Part shown: one piece after another, positions 1,710 through 25,689 of the stretch
Layout: each line of letters starts with the position of its first letter
How positions within the stretch are numbered: position 1 is the stretch's first letter
NCBI GenBank assembly: GCA_903884505.1
Contig: CAISET010000002.1
Coordinates: 277,917-341,916, forward strand
DNA length: 64,000 bases
Origin: an uncultured Candidatus Micrarchaeota archaeon
Lineage (GTDB): Archaea > Micrarchaeota > Micrarchaeia > Burarchaeales > Fermentimicrarchaeaceae
Direction of reading: 5' to 3'
Made by a program: the position numbers and the translations under genes
Notes under the pieces: model-generated
The model's input: the letters and a program-made list of their open reading frames with translations, nothing else
The model's database searches: none
Told to the model about the DNA's origin: nothing

Positions 1710-3137
1710 TTATGCTACTTCCGAGCTCCTTCCCGACTCCTTCTTTACCCCGTAGTCGCTCATCCCCGCCTTCCACCAGGAATCGTACCTGTCGCGCACC
1801 TGGTCCTCGATGCTGCGCGACTTCCTCACCGCGTACTCCATGTGCTTGGCAGTGATCTCCTTCGCATCCTCAATCACTGCCATGTCACCGGCTAGCTTCA
1901 GCATCCCGGCAATGTCACGGAACCGCAGGGTGAGCGCGTCGCCCTTCCCGTCAATCATCTTCGCCTTAGCCTTTGCATCCCTAATGATGATCTCAAGCGC
2001 CCCGCGGTCGGCATGCGGTATCTTGCCGTCCTTGACAATCTCCTGCGCTACAAACTGCGCGAGCTTCACCCTGTTCTCATCCGTGTCCGGCATCGTCGTG
2101 TTGAGCAGCACCTCATACCCGTCCCCGAGAATCCTCGAGCGCAGGGCAGGCAAAATTGAGCCCAGGTCATTCGTGTTCAAGGCCCCTGCAAGTATGAAAT
2201 CGCAAGGCACGCCATCAACGCGCACGGACGCGCCAGTGCTCGTCGCATTCCTGCCGACAATCGGGAACCTCTTCTCCTGCATCGCGGTGAATATGAACCT
2301 CTGGAGATAGCCGAGAGTGGAAAGCTCGTCTACGAAAAGAACGCCCTGGTGCGCCTCATGAATGGCTCCGGGGACAACCCGCTGGTAAGGCGCTATTCCC
2401 GCCTCGGGGTGCCCGCCATAAGGGTCGTGCCTCACATCGCCAAGAAGCTCGGTCTCGCTCGCCCCAGTCACCTGCACGAAAGTGTTCCTGCTCAGGGGCA
2501 CAATCACCTTGCGCGGCCTGTGCTTCCTCATTCCCTCGAGCTCGCGCACCTCCTTCTCGCTGAGCACGCGCACACTGTACCCATCCGCGCGCTCGTACGC
2601 GACCGCCTCCTCCCTTCCGCCAACCGTCCTGGTTGTGCGGACGCGCTCATCCCTCTTCTCGCCGGAAGCGGAGAGCACCAAATCATCGAAAGGCGATGAA
2701 GCCCCGCGGTACTTGTCAGCGCCGCAGGTCGGGCAGACGACGGCCGATGAGGCGCTTATGCTCCCGCACCTCCTGCACCTGTAGCCCAGCCTTTCGGCGG
2801 CAATGACCGGAATATCGCGCACATCAACGAGCTTCCCAAGGCCCCTCTCGTGCCTCATGTCGCTCTTAATTTTGTCAGCCTCCCTCACCTCAACAATCGG
2901 CCTCTCAGGGTTTTCGGGGTTGTGGAGCACGGAGATTTCCTGCGTGGGCTTGGGAAGAAGAAAGGCAATCGCCTGCGCAATCATTGACTTGCCGGTCCCG
3001 GGAGGCCCAACAAGGAGAAGGTGCCTTCTCTGCGCAGCGGCTATGCGCGCCATGCGCACAGCCTCCTCCTGGCCTATCACCATGTCTAAGGGATTGGTGG
3101 GAATCTTCACATCCCTCGTGCTGTCCGGGAGGCGCAT
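1710..3137 (-). CDS. LonB-like AAA+ ATPase lacking transmembrane and protease domains, with an inserted C4 zinc ribbon
   Basis: VIGQEEAVRMARIAAAQRRHLLLVGPPGTGKSM Walker A and the VRHDPYGG...GVLFVDELSTL sensor region match the archaeal LonB ATPase module. It carries CRRCGSIS...CPTCG in place of the membrane insert, and has no S16 domain (475 aa). Confidence 0.6.
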   Translation of the reverse strand: MRLPDSTRDVKIPTNPLDMVIGQEEAVRMARIAAAQRRHLLLVGPPGTGKSMIAQAIAFLLPKPTQEISVLHNPENPERPIVEVREADKIKSDMRHERGLGKLVDVRDIPVIAAERLGYRCRRCGSISASSAVVCPTCGADKYRGASSPFDDLVLSASGEKRDERVRTTRTVGGREEAVAYERADGYSVRVLSEKEVRELEGMRKHRPRKVIVPLSRNTFVQVTGASETELLGDVRHDPYGGHPEAGIAPYQRVVPGAIHEAHQGVLFVDELSTLGYLQRFIFTAMQEKRFPIVGRNATSTGASVRVDGVPCDFILAGALNTNDLGSILPALRSRILGDGYEVLLNTTMPDTDENRVKLAQFVAQEIVKDGKIPHADRGALEIIIRDAKAKAKMIDGKGDALTLRFRDIAGMLKLAGDMAVIEDAKEITAKHMEYAVRKSRSIEDQVRDRYDSWWKAGMSDYGVKKESGRSSEVA

Positions 3138-3170
3138 GGAGGACTATTGGCAGCGCAGATTATTATGTCT

Positions 3171-12479: not shown

Positions 12480-12514
12480 AAGGTTTAAAAATCACCTAAT
12501 GTGAAAGAGACGCT

Positions 12515-13054
12515 ATGAAGCGCGGACAAAGTGCTATTGAGTATCTTACCACCTACGGGTGGGCCATCCTGATTCTGCTCGTCGTCATCGCAGCGCTGTT
12601 CTGGCTGGGCGTGATAAACCCGAAGAGCGTGCTCCAGTCGAGCTGCTTCTTTCCGGCTGACATGAGCTGCCGCGCCTATGTAATGAACACGACCGGTTAC
12701 GTCGCGCTGGACCTCGGGCAGTCCACGGGCCACCCGATAAACGTCACCAACTTCCTCTGCACCTCGCAGAACAACCCAGCCCTGATAACCCCGCTCAACA
12801 ACCCCGTTGTCATCGTGAACGGCGACCACCAGCTCATAACGGACGGCACGCAGCAATGCCTCGACTCAAGTGGCGATATCGCTTCCGGCAGTGCCGGGAA
12901 CCAGTACAAGGGCAAGATATTCATCGAATACGTCGAGCTGGACACGGGCTTCACGCACACCGTCGCAGGGGATGTTTCGCTGAAGTACGAGGAAGTAGCG
13001 ATGCCGACCCCGCAGCCCACGTCAACCCCAACATCGACCCCCGGGCCCGGATGA
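12515..13054 (+). CDS. archaeal type IV pilin-like protein (class III signal peptide, DUF361-like)
   Basis: MKRG|[22 protein letters not shown]: prepilin-peptidase site with Q+1 and E+5 followed by a hydrophobic helix. PT-rich C-terminus. Confidence 0.75.
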   Translation: MKRGQSAIEYLTTYGWAILILLVVIAALFWLGVINPKSVLQSSCFFPADMSCRAYVMNTTGYVALDLGQSTGHPINVTNFLCTSQNNPALITPLNNPVVIVNGDHQLITDGTQQCLDSSGDIASGSAGNQYKGKIFIEYVELDTGFTHTVAGDVSLKYEEVAMPTPQPTSTPTSTPGPG

Positions 13055-13058
13055 GCTG

Positions 13059-14795
13059 GTGTCTTTGGCAGGCTCAAAACGCGGCCAGATCGCCCTCGGA
13101 TCGTCTCCGGCGATAACGCGTGGCCAGACCGCTCTCGAATTCCTGACAACCTACGGCTGGGCAATCTTAGTGCTCCTGGCCGCGCTCTCAGTAATGTATT
13201 ACCTCGGAATCTTCACCCCTCCTTCGCCCAACTCCTGCATCCTTCCCTCAGGTTTCGCATGCCAGGGGTACAAGCTGTCCTCAGGCCCCGGTGGCAGTGG
13301 CGTGCTCACGCTCGACCTCTCGCAGACGACCGGCCACACAATACACATAGTCGGGCTGGCTTGTTCGGCAGAATCCGCGCCCGGCATGACTGCTGTTGAC
13401 GCAACCTTGGACACGGGCCAGAAAGCCAGCTTCCCCTCCCTCAATTGCTCCAATGTCGACGGTTCGCGACCGGCCGCAGGCGATTACTACCGCGGCAAAT
13501 TATACACCAACTACACGGACGAGGACACGGGAATAAGCCACGTCGTGAAGGGCGAACTATCCTACCGCGTCGAGGTAGCCAGTGCAGCCTCGCCCACACC
13601 AAGCCTCTCTCCCAGCCCCTCCCCGACAGTAGGCATATCCCCTAGCCCGTCACCATCGCCCAGCCCAACTCCGACCCCAACACCTACAGAAACCCCGACT
13701 CCCACTCCAACCCCGACACCGGCGCCCACATCCGCCTTCACGATAGACACGACCGCGGACTTCGACGCTGGGGCTGAGAATGGCACCGCAACGATAACCC
13801 AGAACCCTGGAACGACGGCGGCGGATACGCTCGAACTGAAGAACGCCGAGATAACACCTGATGCGAACACTGTGGGTCTCTGGCACATGGACGAGGGCTC
13901 GAGCGGCACAACCGCTGATTCAAGCGGGAATGGGAATACAGGAACGATAAGCGGCGCAACATGGAATTCCTCCGGCATGTTTGGGAACTCGCTGGCGTTT
14001 AATGGGAGTACTGATTATGTAGATGTCGGGAATAATCCAAGCCTTAGTCCTTCTAATGCCCTGACCGTAACAGCATGGGTAAAATATAATGTTATAAATA
14101 GAAACACGGCCATCTATTCAAATAGCGAAATAATAAATATTGCAGTTAGTAATAGTGACAATGCATTTTTTTATCTTACAGACGTGAATTATTGGGTCAT
14201 GCCTGCAGGTGCAATCGGGAACATCAATAACGGGCAATGGCACCAACTAGTTTTTACTTATGACAGTGCAGGCGGTGCAAATAACATGCGTGTCTATGCA
14301 GACGGCATCTTGAAGCAGCAGACAACAGCAACAGGCACGCTGGCACCAACCAGCCACCATACGAAATTAGGCGTCTGGGCTGACGCTTACTATTGGTATG
14401 ATGGCACCATGGACGACGTCGCAATCTACAACCGCTCCCTCTCGGCTGATGAGATAACCGCACGCTACAATTCCGGCCTGAAATACCACACCTCCGGCAA
14501 CTGGACCTCAGCCACCCAAACGATGCCATCCGGCAAGCAGCTCTACGACCTCAGCCTCACGGTTTCAGGAGGTGGCACCTCAGACATAAGCAAGGTTGAG
14601 GTTCTCGACTCATCTGATAATAGCGTCATCACCACATGTTCCACACCCATCACAACGAGCACCGTGCTCACTGCCGCAGACTTCGACAACGGGTTCGGCG
14701 GGACTATGAACAAGAACCTGAAGCTAAGGCTCTACCTCGTTGGCGATGGCGCAAGCAGCATCGCAATTGAGGATATCCAGGGAAGGGCGCAATAG
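13059..14795 (+). CDS. large pilin-like surface protein: class III signal peptide + pilin core + Pro/Thr/Ser linker + LamG (Laminin_G_3 / ConA-like lectin) domain
   Basis: ITRG|[18 protein letters not shown]. (SP)n(TP)n linker. LWHMDEG..DSSGNGNTGT..GATW..GMFGNSLAFNGSTDYVDV......DDVAIYNRSLSADEI is the PF13385 hallmark. Confidence 0.8.
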   Translation: MSLAGSKRGQIALGSSPAITRGQTALEFLTTYGWAILVLLAALSVMYYLGIFTPPSPNSCILPSGFACQGYKLSSGPGGSGVLTLDLSQTTGHTIHIVGLACSAESAPGMTAVDATLDTGQKASFPSLNCSNVDGSRPAAGDYYRGKLYTNYTDEDTGISHVVKGELSYRVEVASAASPTPSLSPSPSPTVGISPSPSPSPSPTPTPTPTETPTPTPTPTPAPTSAFTIDTTADFDAGAENGTATITQNPGTTAADTLELKNAEITPDANTVGLWHMDEGSSGTTADSSGNGNTGTISGATWNSSGMFGNSLAFNGSTDYVDVGNNPSLSPSNALTVTAWVKYNVINRNTAIYSNSEIINIAVSNSDNAFFYLTDVNYWVMPAGAIGNINNGQWHQLVFTYDSAGGANNMRVYADGILKQQTTATGTLAPTSHHTKLGVWADAYYWYDGTMDDVAIYNRSLSADEITARYNSGLKYHTSGNWTSATQTMPSGKQLYDLSLTVSGGGTSDISKVEVLDSSDNSVITTCSTPITTSTVLTAADFDNGFGGTMNKNLKLRLYLVGDGASSIAIEDIQGRAQ

Positions 14796-14819
14796 CCGCC
14801 AAATAACCAAAGAAGAGAT

Positions 14820-17264
14820 GTGATTATGTCCAAGATGCAACGTGCGATGCAAATCAAATCGTCTCCGGCGATAACGCGCGGCCAGACTGCTCTCGAATTC
14901 CTGACAACATATGGCTGGGCAATCTTGGTGCTTCTGGCCGCGCTCTCAGTAATGTATTACCTCGGAATCTTCACCCCTCCTTCGCCCAACTCCTGCATCC
15001 TTCCCTCAGGTTTCGCATGCCAGGGGTACAAGCTGTCCTCAGGTCCCGGCGGCAGCGGCGTCCTAACACTTGACTTCTCACAGACTACCGGCCATACCAT
15101 CCACATAACCGGCCTGGCCTGTTCGGCAGAATCCGCGCCAGGCATGACTGCGGTTGACGCAACCCTGGACACGGGGCAGAAAGCCAGCTTCCCCACCATA
15201 AATTGCTCCAATGCAGACGGTTCGCGACCGGCCGCAGGCGATTACTACCGCGGCAAGATCTACATCAACTACACGGACGAGGACACGGGAATGAGCCATA
15301 TCGTGAAGGGCGAACTATCCTACCGCGTTGAGGTAGCCGGCGCAGCCTCGCCCACACCAAGCCCCTCCCCGACTGTCGGCATATCCCCTAGCCCGTCACC
15401 ATCGCCCAGCCCAACTCCGACCCCAACTCCGACACCCACGCCAACTCCTACGCCCACGCCTACCCCGACACCAGTGCCGAACGGCTGGTTCTTCGGCACG
15501 GTCACCGGTTCCGGGCCTATCGAAGGGGTTAGCGTGAATGCAAGCAACGCGACCGGCTTTTGGGCTGACACCACCAATGCCAGCGGCCAGTATGCGATTT
15601 ATGACCTCGCGCCAGGCCAGTACGACCTGAACGCCAGCATGGCAGGCTATTATGACAATGCTACGACCGCCACCATAACCCCTGGCGCCGGAACAGAGAT
15701 GAACTTCACGCTGCAGGCTATCCCGCCTCCCGCCATATTTTTCGATCTGACGTCGACCGCGGACTTCGACGCTGGGGCTGAGCATGGCACCGCAACAATA
15801 ACCCAGAATCCCGGAACGGCAGCTGCGAACACGCTTGAGCTGAAGAACGCCGAGATAACACCTGATGCAAACACAGTGGGCCTCTGGCACATGGACGAGG
15901 GCACTGGCGTCACAACCGCTGATTCAAGCGGGAACGGAAACAGCGGTATGCTTGGCTCTTCCGTGAATTGGGCTTCCAGCAGCCAAGGTTCGACGGCATC
16001 GGCTACTTCCGTATGGGGAGCTCCCTACCCTGCGTCCAAGACTATCGATGATGTTACCAGCGGACTTGGAGGCGCTTGGGCAGCCGCCGATTACGCGGCG
16101 TACCCAATCAATGTGACAATTGATCTGGGGACTGTGCGAGACATCTACAAAGTCGTTGTTTGGCAGATTGATCTCGCGGACTATCATGTGAAAGACTATC
16201 AGGTTCAATTCTCAACAGACGGTTCGAGCTACACTACTATGGCATCCAATACCTTGCCCGACACAACCGCGTATGCCCAAACCAACACGTTCAGTTCCAC
16301 TCCAACAAGATACATACGAATCTACATTACTTCAGGCTATCACCATTATGCGTATGACTCCGCGGGGTTGGAGGAAATCCAAGCATATTCTGCCCCCAGG
16401 TGGAACTCCAGCGGCATGTTTGGGAACGCGCTGCGCTTTGACGGGGCGGATGATTATGTTGATGCTGGAAATGGGGCCAGTTTGAATATCGTTAACACAG
16501 TTAGTATCGAAGCATGGGTGAAGCCTGCATCAAATACTCAGAATAGTGCAATAGTTTCTAAATGGACAACTGGGTTAGGCACAATCAATTCTTATGCTCT
16601 ATACATCGGGCAAAATGCAGGCAACAACAAATGGGCATTTGCCATAGAACAATCAAATAATACTTATCGGGAACTTTCACCAAGTTCTCCAACTTTTAAT
16701 GCAGGAACATGGTACCATGTCGCTGCAGTGGCAGACGGCTCATACTTGCGACTTTATATAGATGGAATAGATACCGGAACAACAACTTCTTATGACGGAA
16801 CCATCAAAACCACTACTAAAAAACTGCTTATTGGAAAATTGAGAGAAGAAGACAATCTTTATGATTTTGACGGCACCATCGACGACGTCGCCGTCTACGA
16901 CCGCGCCCTCTCAGTAGATGAGATAGCCGCGCTCTACAACTCCGGCCTGAAATACCATACCTCCGGCAACTGGACCTCAGCCACCCAAACGATGCCGTCC
17001 GGCAAGCAGCTCTACGACCTCAGCCTCACGGTTTCAGGAGGTGGCACCTCAGACATAAGCAAGGTTGAGGTTCTCGATTCATCCGACAACAGCGTCATCA
17101 CAACGTGCACCACGCCAATCACAGCGAACACCGTGCTCACCGCTGCAGACTTCGACAACGGGTTCGGCGGGACTATGAACAAGAACCTGAAGCTAAGGCT
17201 CTACCTCGTTGGCGATGGCGCAAGCAGCATCGCAATTGAGGATATCCAGGGAAGGGCGCAATAG
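14820..17264 (+). CDS. large pilin-like surface protein: class III signal peptide + pilin core + PT linker + carboxypeptidase-regulatory-like domain + F5/8 type C (discoidin) domain + LamG domain
   Basis: The N- and C-terminal modules are near-identical to 13059..14795. Inserted domains: [37 protein letters not shown] (CarbopepD_reg-like); [30 protein letters not shown] (discoidin-like); LamG with [15 protein letters not shown]. Confidence 0.8.
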
Positions 17265-17314
17265 CCCCCGAAAAACCTTATAAACTATCAGCAGCCAACC
17301 TTCGCTTAAGGGGT

Positions 17315-17815
17315 GTGATTATGTCCAAAGCACAAAGCGCGATGGAATTCCTGATGACCTACGGCTGGGCGATACTGATAATGCTCACGGTCATCGCAAT
17401 CCTGTTCTACCTGGGCGTCTTCAGCCCGGCAACCGTTTCACCCAACGCATGCGTCCTTCCGGCCGGCTTCTCATGCCACGGCTACAAAGTGACATCCGGA
17501 TCAGGCGACGACGGCCGCCTCTGCCTTATCCTCCTGCAGACGACCGGCCATACAATCAACATAACGAAAATGGCCTGCTCTGACCAAGAGAATCCAGCGC
17601 CGGTTGATATACATCGGCGGCTTTACAACGGCGAAACGTTAGAGATGTCACAGCTCACATGCCTAAAGGCGGACGGTTCCCCTCCCGGAGTCGGAGACTA
17701 CTACCGTGGAACCCTTTACATCAACTATACGGACGAGACAACGAACATAGACCATCAGATAAGCGGGGAGATAGCATACAAGGTCGAGCAGCAGATAGGC
17801 CCCTGCTTCCCATAG
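17315..17815 (+). CDS. archaeal type IV pilin-like protein (class III signal peptide)
   Basis: MIMSKA|QSAMEFLMTYGWAILIML, with the same mature N-terminal consensus as the three upstream genes. Confidence 0.7.
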   Translation: MIMSKAQSAMEFLMTYGWAILIMLTVIAILFYLGVFSPATVSPNACVLPAGFSCHGYKVTSGSGDDGRLCLILLQTTGHTINITKMACSDQENPAPVDIHRRLYNGETLEMSQLTCLKADGSPPGVGDYYRGTLYINYTDETTNIDHQISGEIAYKVEQQIGPCFP

Positions 17816-19300: not shown

Positions 19301-19987
19301 ATGAAGATAGACCTGCACATCCATACCGCAAATTCGCTCGATTCCTGGATAGTCCCGGACAAGCTGCCAGCCATTGCCAAACGGAAGGGGCTTGACGGAA
19401 TCGCAGTCACCGACCATGACACCGCGAGCGCATGGCCCGCAGTTGAGAAGGCTGCAAGAAAGCTGGGAATAGCCGTCATTCGCGGTGAAGAAGTCGGCGT
19501 CAGGCCCGCAGGCAGGCGAGTAGGCGAGATAATCGGGCTTTTCATGAATGAGCCGGTTGACGGAAAAGGAAAGACGTCAGTCGAAGTAATCGACGCCCTC
19601 AAGGCGCAGGGCGCGATAGTGGTCCTTCCCCACCCGTTCGACAAATACAGGAAGATATTCCCGGAGGATGAATTGCGTGAGCTTGCGGTCAAGGTCGATG
19701 CGGTCGAGGTCTTCAACCCCCGCGTCGCCCTCCCGGAGCTCAACCGCAAGGCGAAAGCCTTCGCTGAAGAATTCGGCCTTCCGGAAACCGCCGGGAGCGA
19801 TGCGCACGTCTCATGGGAGGTCGGGAAGGCCTACACCGAGGCGAATGCCAACAGCCCGGAGCAGTTCAGGAAAGCGCTCATCTCGGGGAAAACGAAGGCG
19901 CATGGCACCTACCACCCGTTCTTCACCAGAATCTTCCCGTCAATAGCGAAGCTGAAGAGCAAGCTGCTCGGGAAAAAGCACCGCTAG
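19301..19987 (+). CDS. PHP-domain (polymerase/histidinol phosphatase-like) metal-dependent phosphoesterase
   Basis: MKIDLHIHTANS...GIAVTDHD...LPHPF...GSDAHV are PHP histidine motifs. Confidence 0.7.
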   Translation: MKIDLHIHTANSLDSWIVPDKLPAIAKRKGLDGIAVTDHDTASAWPAVEKAARKLGIAVIRGEEVGVRPAGRRVGEIIGLFMNEPVDGKGKTSVEVIDALKAQGAIVVLPHPFDKYRKIFPEDELRELAVKVDAVEVFNPRVALPELNRKAKAFAEEFGLPETAGSDAHVSWEVGKAYTEANANSPEQFRKALISGKTKAHGTYHPFFTRIFPSIAKLKSKLLGKKHR

Positions 19988-20622
19988 CACGGGACCAGTT
20001 CCGTAGTCTCGCCCGTTATCTGCGGCTCGTTCAATGCGCAGGTCTCAGGCGTAATCCACGCCCTTCCCATATAGGTTACTATGCCGCACACATTCCCCTG
20101 CTGGTAGGTGAAGCCGATTGTCGGGCTCTGCCTCAAGTCAACGGTTATCTTCGCCTTCACTTCTTCTTCGCTTAGTGGCGTGCACGGGGCAATCCCGGTG
20201 CACCAGGTCGGGTGGTAGTGCGTGAACAGCTGGTTCCTGACATTCTGTTCGCATGGATTAGCGGATGAGGGAGCTGGCGTAACCGCAGGCGTGGCGGTGT
20301 GCGTCGCAGCAGGCGAAGGGGTTGCGTTAGGGGTTGCAGTCGGAACAGGCGTCGGAGTAGGCTGGAACTGCGAGAGGTCTATCCTGCTGCCATTAGCATC
20401 AGCACAATAGGGCGGCCCGCGGCAGCAGTTCACGAATTCAGGGCCCGAAGACGCCCAGTGCCCTCCGGCCCCGCTGCACGCGTCATTCATCCAAGGCGCC
20501 GGGCTGATATACTGGGGGCAGTTGCTGTAGCCCAGCCCAAGGCAGAAATCCGTCCCCAGGCATCCGGGCAGCAGAAGCGAAGAGAGCACGGCCAAGGCCG
20601 CAACGAAGATTGTGCGTTCCAT
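19984..20622 (-). CDS. secreted cysteine-rich protein with a Pro/Thr linker
   Basis: N-terminal signal peptide (MERTIFVAALAVLSSLLLPGC). Many Cys. PTPTPVPTATPNATP linker. Confidence 0.5.
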   Translation of the reverse strand: MERTIFVAALAVLSSLLLPGCLGTDFCLGLGYSNCPQYISPAPWMNDACSGAGGHWASSGPEFVNCCRGPPYCADANGSRIDLSQFQPTPTPVPTATPNATPSPAATHTATPAVTPAPSSANPCEQNVRNQLFTHYHPTWCTGIAPCTPLSEEEVKAKITVDLRQSPTIGFTYQQGNVCGIVTYMGRAWITPETCALNEPQITGETTELVPC

Positions 20623-20631
20623 GGTGAGCAG

Positions 20632-21624
20632 TTAGCCCGCCTGCCTTAAAATTTCTTTCCCTTTCCTCGTAAGGCCGTAGAACACGAACTTCCTGCCCGC
20701 CTCCTCCTTCTTCTCGACAAATCCCGCGTCCATCAGCCTGTCAAGATGCTCGACCACGGTCGCCTTGCTCTTGCCCACCCGAGTGCTGAGGTCCGTGGGC
20801 GTCAAATCCCTCGCCTGCAGCTCGCGCATGAGCCCGAGCCGCGTATCCGAGGAAAGCGCCCGGTGCATCTCCGCATCCGGAATCTCAAACTCGACTCCCT
20901 GCCTCTTCGTAATTACCACATACGCGCCGAACGCCGCAAGCACCAGGATTACTGCGCCGCCGGCCGCATATGGCCTCGCAGTATCCGCCCAGCCGGCAAT
21001 CCCGCTGCTTTCATGGCCGCTTCCCTTCTCCGCAGCGCCAGCTGTCCCCTCCCCGGCGCCTGCCGTCCCCAAACAAAACGTCCCCTGGCAAGACGGTGCC
21101 CATTCACCGGGCGAAGGCATCGGCGTCGGAGCTGGTTGCCCGGATGGAAGGTCGTTGATGAACGGCAAATACGCGCCCGTTGACGCCCCAGTTGCCGCGT
21201 CCGGGCATGCGATTCCAGGGGCGGGATATTCCTTCGCGCCCTGAGCAGTGAAGACGTACCCTGCGAATCCTTCCCTGTATGCGACCGCGGTGTATTCGTC
21301 GCACGTGGAGAGATTGGCGTTTGTTGCGGTCGCATCTGCGAGGAAAAGTGAATACTCCTCGGGGGTCATCTTCGTCACAGAATAGCCGTGCGCGATGAAC
21401 TCCCAGACCGTTGCCTTCTCCTCATCCGTTAGGTTCAGGCCAGTCCAGTTCTCTCCGTTATTGTAAGCCATAACCGAGTCAAAATCAGTGACGTTGGCCA
21501 CGGGCTGGCTGCTCACAAAGAAAAGCTTGGTTTCCCCAACCTCAACGGATGGCGCTTCCACCCAGGCGTGCGCGATTCCCGCGAACAGCAGGGCAAATCC
21601 CAGCGCGACGAGTTCCGGCCTCAT
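20632..21624 (-). CDS. membrane-anchored winged-helix transcription regulator with an extracytoplasmic N-terminal domain
   Basis: Order of domains: signal peptide, about 200-aa ectodomain, PT/Gly linker, a single TM (AGGAVILVLAAFGAYVVI), then a C-terminal wHTH (SDTRLGLMRELQARDLTPTDLSTRVGKSKATVVEHLDRLMDAGFV). Confidence 0.55.
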   Translation of the reverse strand: MRPELVALGFALLFAGIAHAWVEAPSVEVGETKLFFVSSQPVANVTDFDSVMAYNNGENWTGLNLTDEEKATVWEFIAHGYSVTKMTPEEYSLFLADATATNANLSTCDEYTAVAYREGFAGYVFTAQGAKEYPAPGIACPDAATGASTGAYLPFINDLPSGQPAPTPMPSPGEWAPSCQGTFCLGTAGAGEGTAGAAEKGSGHESSGIAGWADTARPYAAGGAVILVLAAFGAYVVITKRQGVEFEIPDAEMHRALSSDTRLGLMRELQARDLTPTDLSTRVGKSKATVVEHLDRLMDAGFVEKKEEAGRKFVFYGLTRKGKEILRQAG

Positions 21625-21748
21625 GGGTAAAACCGCTCAATCCGGTTTTAATACCCTTTCTTTTTTGTTCGGCGCGTTCCTAACAATGTTTCTGCGTCGT
21701 AAAGTAGCGTGCGAATACCCATATTAACCCAGGCTGCGAAATCCACTC

Positions 21749-25165: not shown

Positions 25166-25298
25166 GCCGTGGTAGCTCAGCCTGGGAGAGCATTCGAATC
25201 TTTTCTTGGTTTCCAAGAAAAGGTGATGAAGCTGAAGGATTCCCAGACGAGGGGAGCCAGAAACCGAAGGGTCGCAGGTTCAAATCCTGCCCACGGCA
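25166..25298 (+). tRNA. intron-containing tRNA (about 133 nt; anticodon uncertain, possibly CUU/Lys). Intron of about 60 nt in the anticodon loop with a 10-bp hairpin and a GUGAUGA box-C-like motif
   Basis: Acceptor GCCGUGG/CCACGGC+A. D-arm GCUCAGCCUGGGAGAGC. T-arm GCAGGUUCAAAUCCUGC. The two halves are separated by an insert. Confidence 0.7.
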
Positions 25299-25372
25299 CT
25301 GACCCTTTTCCCAATCGCCCGGGTTCGCAGCCCGGCGATATGGTAAAAGCGTCAACGGAAAACGTCATAAAT

Positions 25373-25524
25373 GCGATCGTAGTCTAGCCTGGTAGGACTC
25401 GGCCTTGCCAAGGCCGTGGCCCGGGTTCAAATCCGAACCGCGGAGGGGGACACCCCCTCCTCAGTTTGAGGGTCCTCCGGATCCTCCCCCGTTCGACGGG
25501 GCGGTGAAACTCCCGGCGGTCGCA
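25373..25524 (+). tRNA. tRNA-Gly(GCC) with an ~85-nt intron in the T-arm (between the T-loop and the 3' T-stem)
   Basis: GCGAUCG-UA-GUCUAGCCUGGUAGGAC-U-CGGCC-UUGCCAA-GGCCG-UGGC-CCGGG-UUCAAAU, then [insert with three hairpins], then CCCGG-CGGUCGC-A. Confidence 0.7.
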
Positions 25525-25532
25525 TGTTTTCT

Positions 25533-25689
25533 GCGGTCGTAGTCTAGCCTGGTAGGACTTAGGCCCTCCAATGGCCCTTTTCCCACCGCATATCCGGCTC
25601 CGCCGGGTTGCGCATGGTAAAAGCGCCAGCGGAAAATCCGCTGGCGAAGAGGAAAGCCTATAACCCGGGTTCAAATCCCGGCGGCCGCA
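25533..25689 (+). tRNA. intron-containing tRNA, most likely tRNA-Gly(UCC) with an ~80-nt intron at 37/38. The alternative reading Trp(CCA) is not excluded
   Basis: The 5' half is near-identical to the other Gly tRNAs. UAGGC/GCCUA stem pairs perfectly across the insert. Intact T-arm CCGGGUUCAAAUCCCGG and acceptor GCGGUCG/CGGCCGC+A. Confidence 0.65.

Follow-up and report, generated by a model that had tools for sequence, protein, structure and literature searches.

Exchangeable ectodomains and an operator-like promoter element in a family of predicted membrane-tethered ArsR-type regulators from Micrarchaeota

ToxR and TcpP of Vibrio cholerae and CadC of Escherichia coli are single-pass proteins combining an extracytoplasmic domain with a winged-helix DNA-binding domain, and ToxR and TcpP each have a small extracytoplasmic partner, ToxS and TcpH respectively, whose gene follows directly in the operon. 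ArnR, an archaeal regulator, has an N-terminal cytoplasmic helix-turn-helix, a HAMP-like region and two C-terminal transmembrane (TM) helices, with essentially no ectodomain. In DPANN archaea, Micrarchaeota among them, genomes are very small and recognisable regulators are few, and the way in which these organisms perceive a host is not understood. ArnR and ArnR1 of Sulfolobus acidocaldarius are characterised membrane-bound one-component regulators (PMC6396743). Proteins with a DNA-binding domain and at least one TM segment in one polypeptide, termed transmembrane transcription regulators (TTRs), were surveyed by Demey et al. (2023), who found such combinations, at approximately four per genome, in 367 of the 404 species of archaea; their TTR table records TcpH/ToxS-like neighbours, and Micrarchaeota and other DPANN archaea are not mentioned in the main text (PMC10269533). 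In this study, a stretch of 64,000 nucleotides from an uncultured Candidatus Micrarchaeota archaeon (contig CAISET010000002.1, positions 277,917 to 341,916; hereafter the window) was analysed for gene A, which encodes a predicted TTR, and gene B, which lies 9 bp downstream of it. An earlier note on this DNA had called membrane-tethered transcription factors with extracellular sensor domains rare in archaea; the survey figures speak against rarity of the class.

Sequence comparison indicated that A represents, in this genome, a gene that is found across the phylum, often in synteny, and encodes a TM helix followed by a winged helix-turn-helix (wHTH) domain, with an exchangeable ectodomain and a conserved, gene-specific operator-like element. 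A literature search found no paper describing this family. The open reading frames (ORFs) of A and B were both found on the minus strand where the earlier note had placed them. The features of gene A are as follows.

20632..21624, minus strand: gene A, predicted 330-aa type-I membrane protein with a C-terminal ArsR-type wHTH (ORF, HTH_5 match, homologues, AlphaFold2 model).
21565..21624, minus strand: predicted signal peptide of A, residues 1-20, MRPELVALGFALLFAGIAHA followed by W (hydrophobic 19-mers at residues 3-24).
21145..21564, minus strand: predicted folded ectodomain of A, residues 21-160, an orphan alpha/beta domain.
20980..21144, minus strand: predicted disordered stalk of A, residues 161-215, Pro/Thr-rich and then Gly/Ala-rich (low model confidence at residues 162-214).
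20908..20970, minus strand: predicted TM helix of A, residues 219-239, followed by K240 and R241 (Kyte-Doolittle 19-mer maximum 2.34; helix 217-242 in the model).
20635..20877, minus strand: predicted cytoplasmic ArsR/SmtB-type wHTH of A, residues 250-330 (profile matches, AlphaFold2, matches to solved structures).

The N-terminal hydrophobic signal of A (residues 3-24) ends in AHA followed by W, and one further strong hydrophobic segment was found at residues 219-239 (Kyte-Doolittle value up to 2.34), with KRQ directly after it. Pfam HTH_5 (PF01022) matched residues 260-305 with 37.3 bits (cutoff 22; E 2.5e-9), above the curated threshold by which an ArsR/SmtB wHTH is recognised. The NCBIfam model for ArsR/SmtB metalloregulators, NF033788, gave 39.5 bits, under its 55-bit cutoff, so A is not assigned to that class. 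None of the four cysteines of A lies C-terminal of residue 184; the predicted cytoplasmic domain is therefore cysteine-free and classical thiolate metal sites are absent.

An AlphaFold2 model built on an alignment of 12 orthologues displayed a confident ectodomain core at approximately residues 25-130, disorder at residues 162-214 (predicted local distance difference test, pLDDT, <50) and a long helix at residues 217-242. The wHTH, residues 250-329, was modelled with pLDDT of approximately 90 as a canonical alpha1-alpha5 fold with a beta-hairpin, in the order alpha1-alpha2-alpha3-alphaR-beta1-beta2-alpha5 (helices 250-256, 260-271, 276-283 and 287-299; strands 303-307 and 314-318; helix 320-329). 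The closest solved structures were PH1932 (1uly, 3.9e-9), HlyU and SmtB, and the recognition helix reads KSKATVVEHL. Hydropathy, the HTH_5 match and the model thus bear out the signal peptide, linker, single TM helix and wHTH described previously. The ectodomain length of about 200 aa given with them holds only if the linker is counted; the folded part is approximately 140 aa and is followed by a P/T/G linker of approximately 55 aa, the length and sequence of which differ among orthologues.

The basic residues K240 and R241 directly after the TM segment, the location of all four N-X-S/T sequons and all four cysteines N-terminal of it, the low-complexity stalk preceding it and the type-I layout of the ectodomain relatives described below support an orientation with the ectodomain outside and the wHTH inside, and hence A as a type-I one-component transmembrane transcription regulator. 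As far as sequence analysis tells, the TM segment is not a buried helix of a soluble protein, nor is the wHTH extracellular.

Through HTH_5 and helix 219-239, A falls within the TTR definition (PMC10269533); that it would regulate transcription while in the membrane is supported indirectly by the conserved operator-like motif at its own promoter (see below). It resembles ToxR, TcpP and CadC in being a single-pass protein with an extracytoplasmic domain and a winged-helix DNA-binding domain. However, the order is opposite, with an N-terminal ectodomain behind a cleaved signal peptide and a C-terminal DNA-binding domain, and the latter is of the ArsR type (HTH_5) rather than the OmpR/PhoB type; Trans_reg_C gave no match in A at E values up to 1, which sets A apart from ToxR/CadC-like proteins. 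No homology of the A ectodomain or of B to ToxR/ToxS, TcpP/TcpH or CadC was found. The comparison with ToxR or CadC made in the earlier note therefore stands at the level of the TTR class and fails for domain order and domain type. Because of the ArsR-type domain, the reversed topology and the absence of homology of ectodomain and B, A is best described as fitting the TTR class functionally while lying outside the ToxR/TcpP families.

ArnR and ArnR1 share with A their archaeal origin and a membrane-anchored HTH, and the characterised ArnR examples control type-IV-pilus-like surface structures. A differs from them in its large ectodomain and C-terminal wHTH, and the Pfam scan gave no HAMP match in A, so A is not ArnR-like in layout. 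From the soluble ArsR/SmtB repressors (PH1932/1uly, HlyU, SmtB), with which it shares the wHTH fold, the recognition-helix pattern and a palindromic candidate operator in its own promoter, as is typical of that family, A is distinguished by its predicted membrane tether and cysteine-free cytoplasmic domain. A thus provides an archaeal example of a predicted TTR in type-I orientation, in which the N-terminus is exported and the ArsR wHTH is at the C-terminal end.

A protein search with A among 5.8 billion proteins gave 47 matches (46 besides A's own cluster), and all matches with a named organism were from Micrarchaeota or related metagenome-assembled genomes (MAGs). Full-length orthologues (41-52% identity) share the ectodomain, and the more distant matches share only the TM helix and wHTH; all 33 invariant columns among the A orthologues fall in the wHTH. 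A scan of one genome per GTDB species revealed 41 Micrarchaeota loci, together with two loci in Methanococci (related wHTH, reverse order) and five weak Methanobacterium/euryarchaeal matches, indicating that the family is almost wholly confined to Micrarchaeota. Each of the 41 Micrarchaeota loci encodes a C-terminal wHTH with a hydrophobic segment ahead of it. The proteins range from 190 to 885 aa, the identity of the wHTH is 43-76%, and the N-terminal parts form 13 BLAST clusters, one VIT-vWA, one CarboxypepD_reg-like and most of them orphan. By these comparisons the TM-wHTH module is fused to at least 13 unrelated ectodomain types.

The recurring neighbourhood consists of a divergent Hef-like helicase gene, often a histone gene, A, and a convergent CDP-alcohol phosphatidyltransferase gene with inositol-phosphate genes; in the subclade of the window, it additionally includes a PHP gene 3' of A. 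Given this stable neighbourhood, members with unrelated ectodomains are judged to be positional orthologues. The LFW-121_3 assembly has two A copies (L019 and L027).

An archaeal histone-fold gene was observed directly 5' of A and co-oriented with it, between A and the divergent helicase gene, in 22 of the 41 representative Micrarchaeota loci (L003 5716-5931, L008 5746-5946, L009 5656-5865, L011 3549-3746 and 18 others). A histone homologue was not detected anywhere in the 64-kb window, and the window's subclade mostly has no histone gene beside A.

The closest wHTH relatives from outside Micrarchaeota (73-75 bits) were found at L054 5992-6339 and L055 5992-6459, in Methanocaldococcus / Methanococci MAGs. 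They are small membrane-anchored proteins with an N-terminal wHTH, containing a LGKSKSTISEHL helix, followed by one or two TM helices. They differ from A in this reversed order, in having no ectodomain and in having no CCGAAC motif (see below) upstream. Judging from the reversed order, this wHTH subtype seems to have become tethered to the membrane both ways round.

The ectodomain of A gave no match in Pfam or PDB, nor did fold searches against solved structures. Motifs conserved in it are HGYS, EY..FL, C..Y.AVAY..GFAGY and INDL. In an exhaustive profile search of 1.84 billion representatives, 54 proteins were detected, with E values down to 7e-45, and 47 of them (including P0052-P0097) were outside the orthologue set of the first search. 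Most of these 47 distant relatives are 140-280 aa long; a signal peptide was predicted in 41, and in 35 the signal ends in [AGS]-C. In 32 of the 47 the domain lies between the signal peptide and a C-terminal TM segment with a basic tail of 2-13 residues, and only one (P0085) carries a wHTH. These small, uncharacterised archaeal surface proteins therefore share with A a homologous ectodomain, a signal peptide and a C-terminal TM segment, and differ in their cytoplasmic part. They have a predicted type-I layout, and in A the wHTH apparently replaces the basic tail. Since the domain is found mostly in type-I surface proteins, the ectodomain of A is interpreted as a surface module of archaeal cells, hitherto uncharacterised, that became joined to the TM-wHTH cassette in one subclade of Micrarchaeota.

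Codon 21 of A (window 21562-21564) encodes Trp, and the aligned full-length orthologues have Cys at that post-signal position (A-C at the cleavage site, A-W in the window), as do the 35 distant relatives with the lipobox-like [AGS]-C; a second conserved Cys (K-x3-C) is likewise lost in the window's A. Both changes could reflect a disulfide pair lost together, or else a lost lipid anchor. One orthologue of 450 aa (P0002, at L061 3074-4426) appears to carry a tandem second, more divergent copy of the ectodomain, and has a B gene 9 bp downstream.

For promoter analysis, the 160 bp upstream of A and its orthologues were aligned, and the following elements were assigned in the window.

21667..21684, minus strand: operator-like imperfect palindrome GTTAGG-N6-CCGAAC, 43-60 nt 5' of the ATG of A (promoter alignment, position weight matrix).
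21646..21653, minus strand: putative TATA box TATTAAAA, 22-29 nt 5' of the ATG of A (read from sequence).

The promoters of A and its orthologues have in common a CCGAAC-A-rich element immediately 5' of a TATA-like box. Such a CCGAAC-based element beside the TATA box was present in 28 of 28 aligned A-family promoters; since these had been picked for having CCGAAC near -49, what counts as independent is that the element is unique in each locus, and not that it is present. On the minus strand of the window, the order (5' to 3') is GTTAGG-aacgcg-CCGAAC, an A-rich/purine-rich tract, TATTAAAA and the ATG at 21624. The TATA-like element is at the same distance in the aligned promoters, with the ATG approximately 22-29 nt past it, which implies a leaderless mRNA for A. 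In most other clades the element is a direct repeat, CCGAAC-N5-CCGAAC, that adjoins the TATA box; the window's clade and the VIT-vWA clade have an inverted repeat, GTTCGG-N6-CCGAAC, and some loci have both arrangements.

The sequence CCGAACRAAAA had a single exact match in the 64-kb window, at the A promoter, and with one mismatch there were two matches, the same number as in shuffled sequence. Degenerate searches with up to 3 mismatches and a scan with a position weight matrix (PWM) found no second copy of the A motif in the window. In 697 kb, comprising the window and the loci and containing several hundred other genes, a regular expression for the direct repeat gave 21 matches, and CCGAAC followed by a TATA box gave 14; all 21 and all 14 were at A promoters. 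With a leave-one-out PWM built from the 28 promoters and excluding the TATA box, the A promoter was top-ranked in all 28 loci; in the window it scored 27.0 bits, compared with 10.1 for the next best site in 64 kb. That CCGAAC is a generic B recognition element (BRE) of Micrarchaeota was considered and rejected, as CCGAAC with a TATA box occurred, in the 697 kb, at A promoters only.

The recognition helix GKSKATVVEHL is nearly invariant across the family, and so is the CCGAAC half-site in the family's own promoters. With both so conserved, autoregulation of A through the CCGAAC-based element is the simplest explanation, and an 18-bp candidate operator is thereby defined.

Further observations were made on these and other promoters. 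The expected start site of A transcription falls in a perfect 7-bp inverted repeat, AAAACCG-N7-CGGTTTT (window 21629-21649, minus strand), as does the 3' end of the putative TATA box; the arms flank a TTGAGCGG core that is common to L006 and partly to L005, L003 and L013. A second copy of the CCGAAC element was seen 115-170 bp 5' of the A start, just past the histone gene, in L042 (~5202), L024 (~3088-3151) and L031 (~516), with PWM scores of 17-21 bits. The CCGAAC hexamer also lies at -49/-50 from the start codon in L056-L060, which are weakly related Methanobacterium wHTH genes for apparently soluble products. This may be coincidental, the five loci being close relatives.

Taken as a whole, the explanation that we favour, with moderate confidence, is that A is a one-component TM regulator that autoregulates through the CCGAAC-based element, with B as a clade-specific accessory. 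A cleaved signal peptide would export the orphan ectodomain of approximately 140 aa on a flexible P/T/G stalk, and a single TM helix would place the ArsR-type wHTH, about 10 residues on, at the cytoplasmic face. The wHTH would dimerise and bind the CCGAAC-based element just 5' of its own BRE/TATA (in the window, GTTAGG-N6-CCGAAC), so that A would autoregulate from the membrane, with occupancy or oligomerisation of the ectodomain altering DNA binding. B, translated from the A transcript, would most likely serve A as an extracytoplasmic accessory, stabilising it or acting as a co-receptor, on the model of the ToxR-ToxS and TcpP-TcpH pairs. The TM-wHTH module and its operator would then be a conserved, often syntenic feature of Micrarchaeota with an exchangeable ectodomain; exchange among at least 13 types, including VIT-vWA, fits a sensor or adhesion input that faces the environment or a host cell. 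Combining a DNA-binding head that is invariant, a promoter element to match it and an extracellular domain that is exchanged rapidly, the family is a concrete and testable candidate for host or environment sensing in Micrarchaeota.

Several points weigh against this explanation. Searches by sequence and by fold gave no clue to the ligand or fold of the A ectodomain, the topology was judged from hydropathy and composition, and the tether between the end of the TM helix and helix alpha1 has only about 10 residues. Inverted and direct arrangements of the half-sites are not easily explained by a single dimer geometry, a factor other than A could bind the CCGAAC element, and the selection of the 28 promoters limits what they attest, as stated above. 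Finally, three A orthologues with the same ectodomain (L001/L014, L006/L007 and L013) have no B within 6 kb, and B therefore cannot be essential to the mechanism of A.

A bolder extension, which we put forward as doubtful, is that the TM-wHTH gene encodes an 'outside-in' switch that defines the Micrarchaeota as a lineage, near-universal and autoregulated, in which head and operator are frozen, the extracellular head is swapped to match the host archaeon or environment, and B is a clade-specific co-receptor. If true, this switch would be the main route coupling host contact to gene expression in these genome-reduced episymbionts.

Gene B and its features are as follows.

19984..20622, minus strand: gene B, 212-aa putative lipoprotein with 13 cysteines (ORF).
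20560..20622, minus strand: predicted signal peptide of B with lipobox LLPG followed by C, residues 1-21 (hydrophobic segment at residues 1-30; G20 and C21 invariant in 5 of 5 relatives).
19987..20256, minus strand: C-terminal six-cysteine domain of B, residues 123-212, with VPC at the end (29 invariant columns in five relatives).
19973..19977, minus strand: T5 tract, 7-11 nt past the stop codon of B, candidate archaeal A-B terminator (read from sequence).

The distance from the TAA of A to the ATG of B is 9 bp, as noted earlier, and a purine-rich Shine-Dalgarno-like sequence lies ahead of B inside the 3' end of A. The short gap, with no oligo-T between the genes and a T5 tract after B, fits a single transcript, making the co-transcription proposed earlier plausible. 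B has an N-terminal hydrophobic signal and a PT-rich linker, both as previously described, and 13 cysteines instead of the 16 reported. Its signal ends in LLPGC, with G-C invariant in 5 of 5 relatives. Compared with the lipobox pattern [LVI][ASTVI][GAS]C, the Pro at -2 in the L-P-G-C of the window is atypical, and the relatives have L-S-G-C, L-L-G-C and L-F-G-C. From the invariant G-C of this lipobox-like sequence, B is probably a membrane-attached lipoprotein rather than the free secreted protein of the earlier description.

No match for B was found in Pfam, NCBIfam or PDB. Like the A ectodomain, the B domain is thus classed as an orphan by sequence, and the likeness of B to ToxS and TcpH is limited to gene order and predicted location. 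About six B relatives are known, to which a profile search among 5.8 billion proteins contributed no more than a single fragment. They have in common the lipobox, the PT linker and a C-terminal domain of approximately 90 aa with six invariant cysteines and a VPC end; across five relatives this domain has 29 invariant columns, including all six Cys. The N-terminal Cys-rich module is optional, and the 160-aa relatives in L003 and L005 share the C-terminal domain only.

All five B relatives with genomic context (window, L061, L062, L003/L004 and L005) sit 1-9 bp 3' of an A orthologue, with the purine-rich Shine-Dalgarno-like sequence again inside the 3' end of A. None of the 41 representative Micrarchaeota loci has B, and in the B-less orthologous loci the stop of A abuts the convergent PHP gene. 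Obligate pairing of A and B is rejected on account of these B-less loci. Because B follows an A orthologue wherever its context is known and A is often without B, B is regarded as a clade-specific accessory and not a core partner, with B apparently dependent on the A context and A independent of B. The proposal that the two form a ligand/sensor pair thus draws some support from the position of the five relatives and is weakened by the three orthologues and 41 loci without B.

It is possible, though we do not favour it, that B is a passenger with no relation to A: a surface lipoprotein particular to this lineage that was inserted between two convergent genes, sharing the transcript of A without physical or functional interaction. 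Its absence from so many A loci would fit such an insertion, as would the optional Cys-rich module and the fact that the stop of A abuts or overlaps that of the PHP gene in B-less loci just as the stop of B does in the window. However, the five relatives with context occupy this position only, and they do so across A orthologues that have diverged to 43-52% identity, which favours retention with A over random insertion.

With respect to how A would reach its DNA, an unlikely alternative to action from the membrane is that A is held inactive there until a signal at the ectodomain induces site-1/site-2 type cleavage, the freed wHTH then acting as a soluble ArsR-like repressor or activator. With a tether of about 10 residues, reaching DNA from the membrane would be sterically demanding; the TM helix contains Gly residues (AAGGAVILVLAAFGAYVVIT), and the long disordered stalk could serve as a site-1 target. 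However, a linked protease gene was found in none of approximately 50 loci examined, no conserved cleavage motif was evident in the orthologue alignment, and the bacterial TTRs ToxR and CadC are known to act while membrane-bound (PMC10269533).

Quite unlikely, in our estimate, is binding of the CCGAAC element by a different soluble factor, or its being a specialised BRE variant, with the wHTH of A having other targets or a role unrelated to DNA. The proximal CCGAAC does occupy the BRE position in the direct-repeat clade, and the layout of the motif varies between clades though the recognition helix is the same. The restriction of CCGAAC plus TATA to A promoters (14 of 14) among several hundred other genes argues against a generic BRE, and phylum-wide near-invariance of both recognition helix and half-site is most simply explained if the two are in contact. 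That A is instead a structural tether and not a signal-responsive regulator, the wHTH anchoring its own promoter region beside the histone gene to the membrane (e.g. in nucleoid organisation or segregation in these very small cells) and the ectodomain being only a surface or adhesion module, would suit the phylum-wide conservation, the fixed synteny (in 22 of 41 loci the gene immediately 5' codes for a histone), the one high-scoring site per locus and the wide occurrence of the ectodomain as a plain surface protein without wHTH, but is very unlikely given that the site coincides with the BRE/TATA of the gene for A itself, the classic autoregulatory position, that ArsR-family proteins are established transcription factors, and that some genomes have two paralogues (L019 and L027, from the same assembly).

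Four tandem genes at window positions 12500-17815 (plus strand) encode proteins with class-III (type-IV-pilin-like) signal N-termini; domains of the lectin type (Laminin_G_3, F5/8 type C) and CarboxypepD_reg domains were found in the two large proteins. This composition suggests pilus-tip or pilin-like adhesins. The A-B pair had been described as lying just downstream of this pilin locus. The two are neighbours, and their proximity is syntenic within the subclade, but three housekeeping genes (inositol monophosphatase, CDP-alcohol phosphatidyltransferase and PHP) part them, and the pilin-like genes are on the opposite, convergent strand. Mismatch searches and the PWM scan of the 64-kb window detected no A-type motif upstream of the pilin-like genes. 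With no second motif site in the 64-kb window, a wider regulon of A and the suggested control of pilin or other surface genes by A and B are not supported.

Rfam tRNA matches were also seen on the plus strand of the window at 25166-25298 and 25533-25689. ARAGORN gave a different set, tRNA-Gly at 25372-25443 and tRNA-Phe at 25600-25688. The Rfam matches span 133 and 157 nt for a model of 71 positions, which suggests intron-containing archaeal tRNAs.

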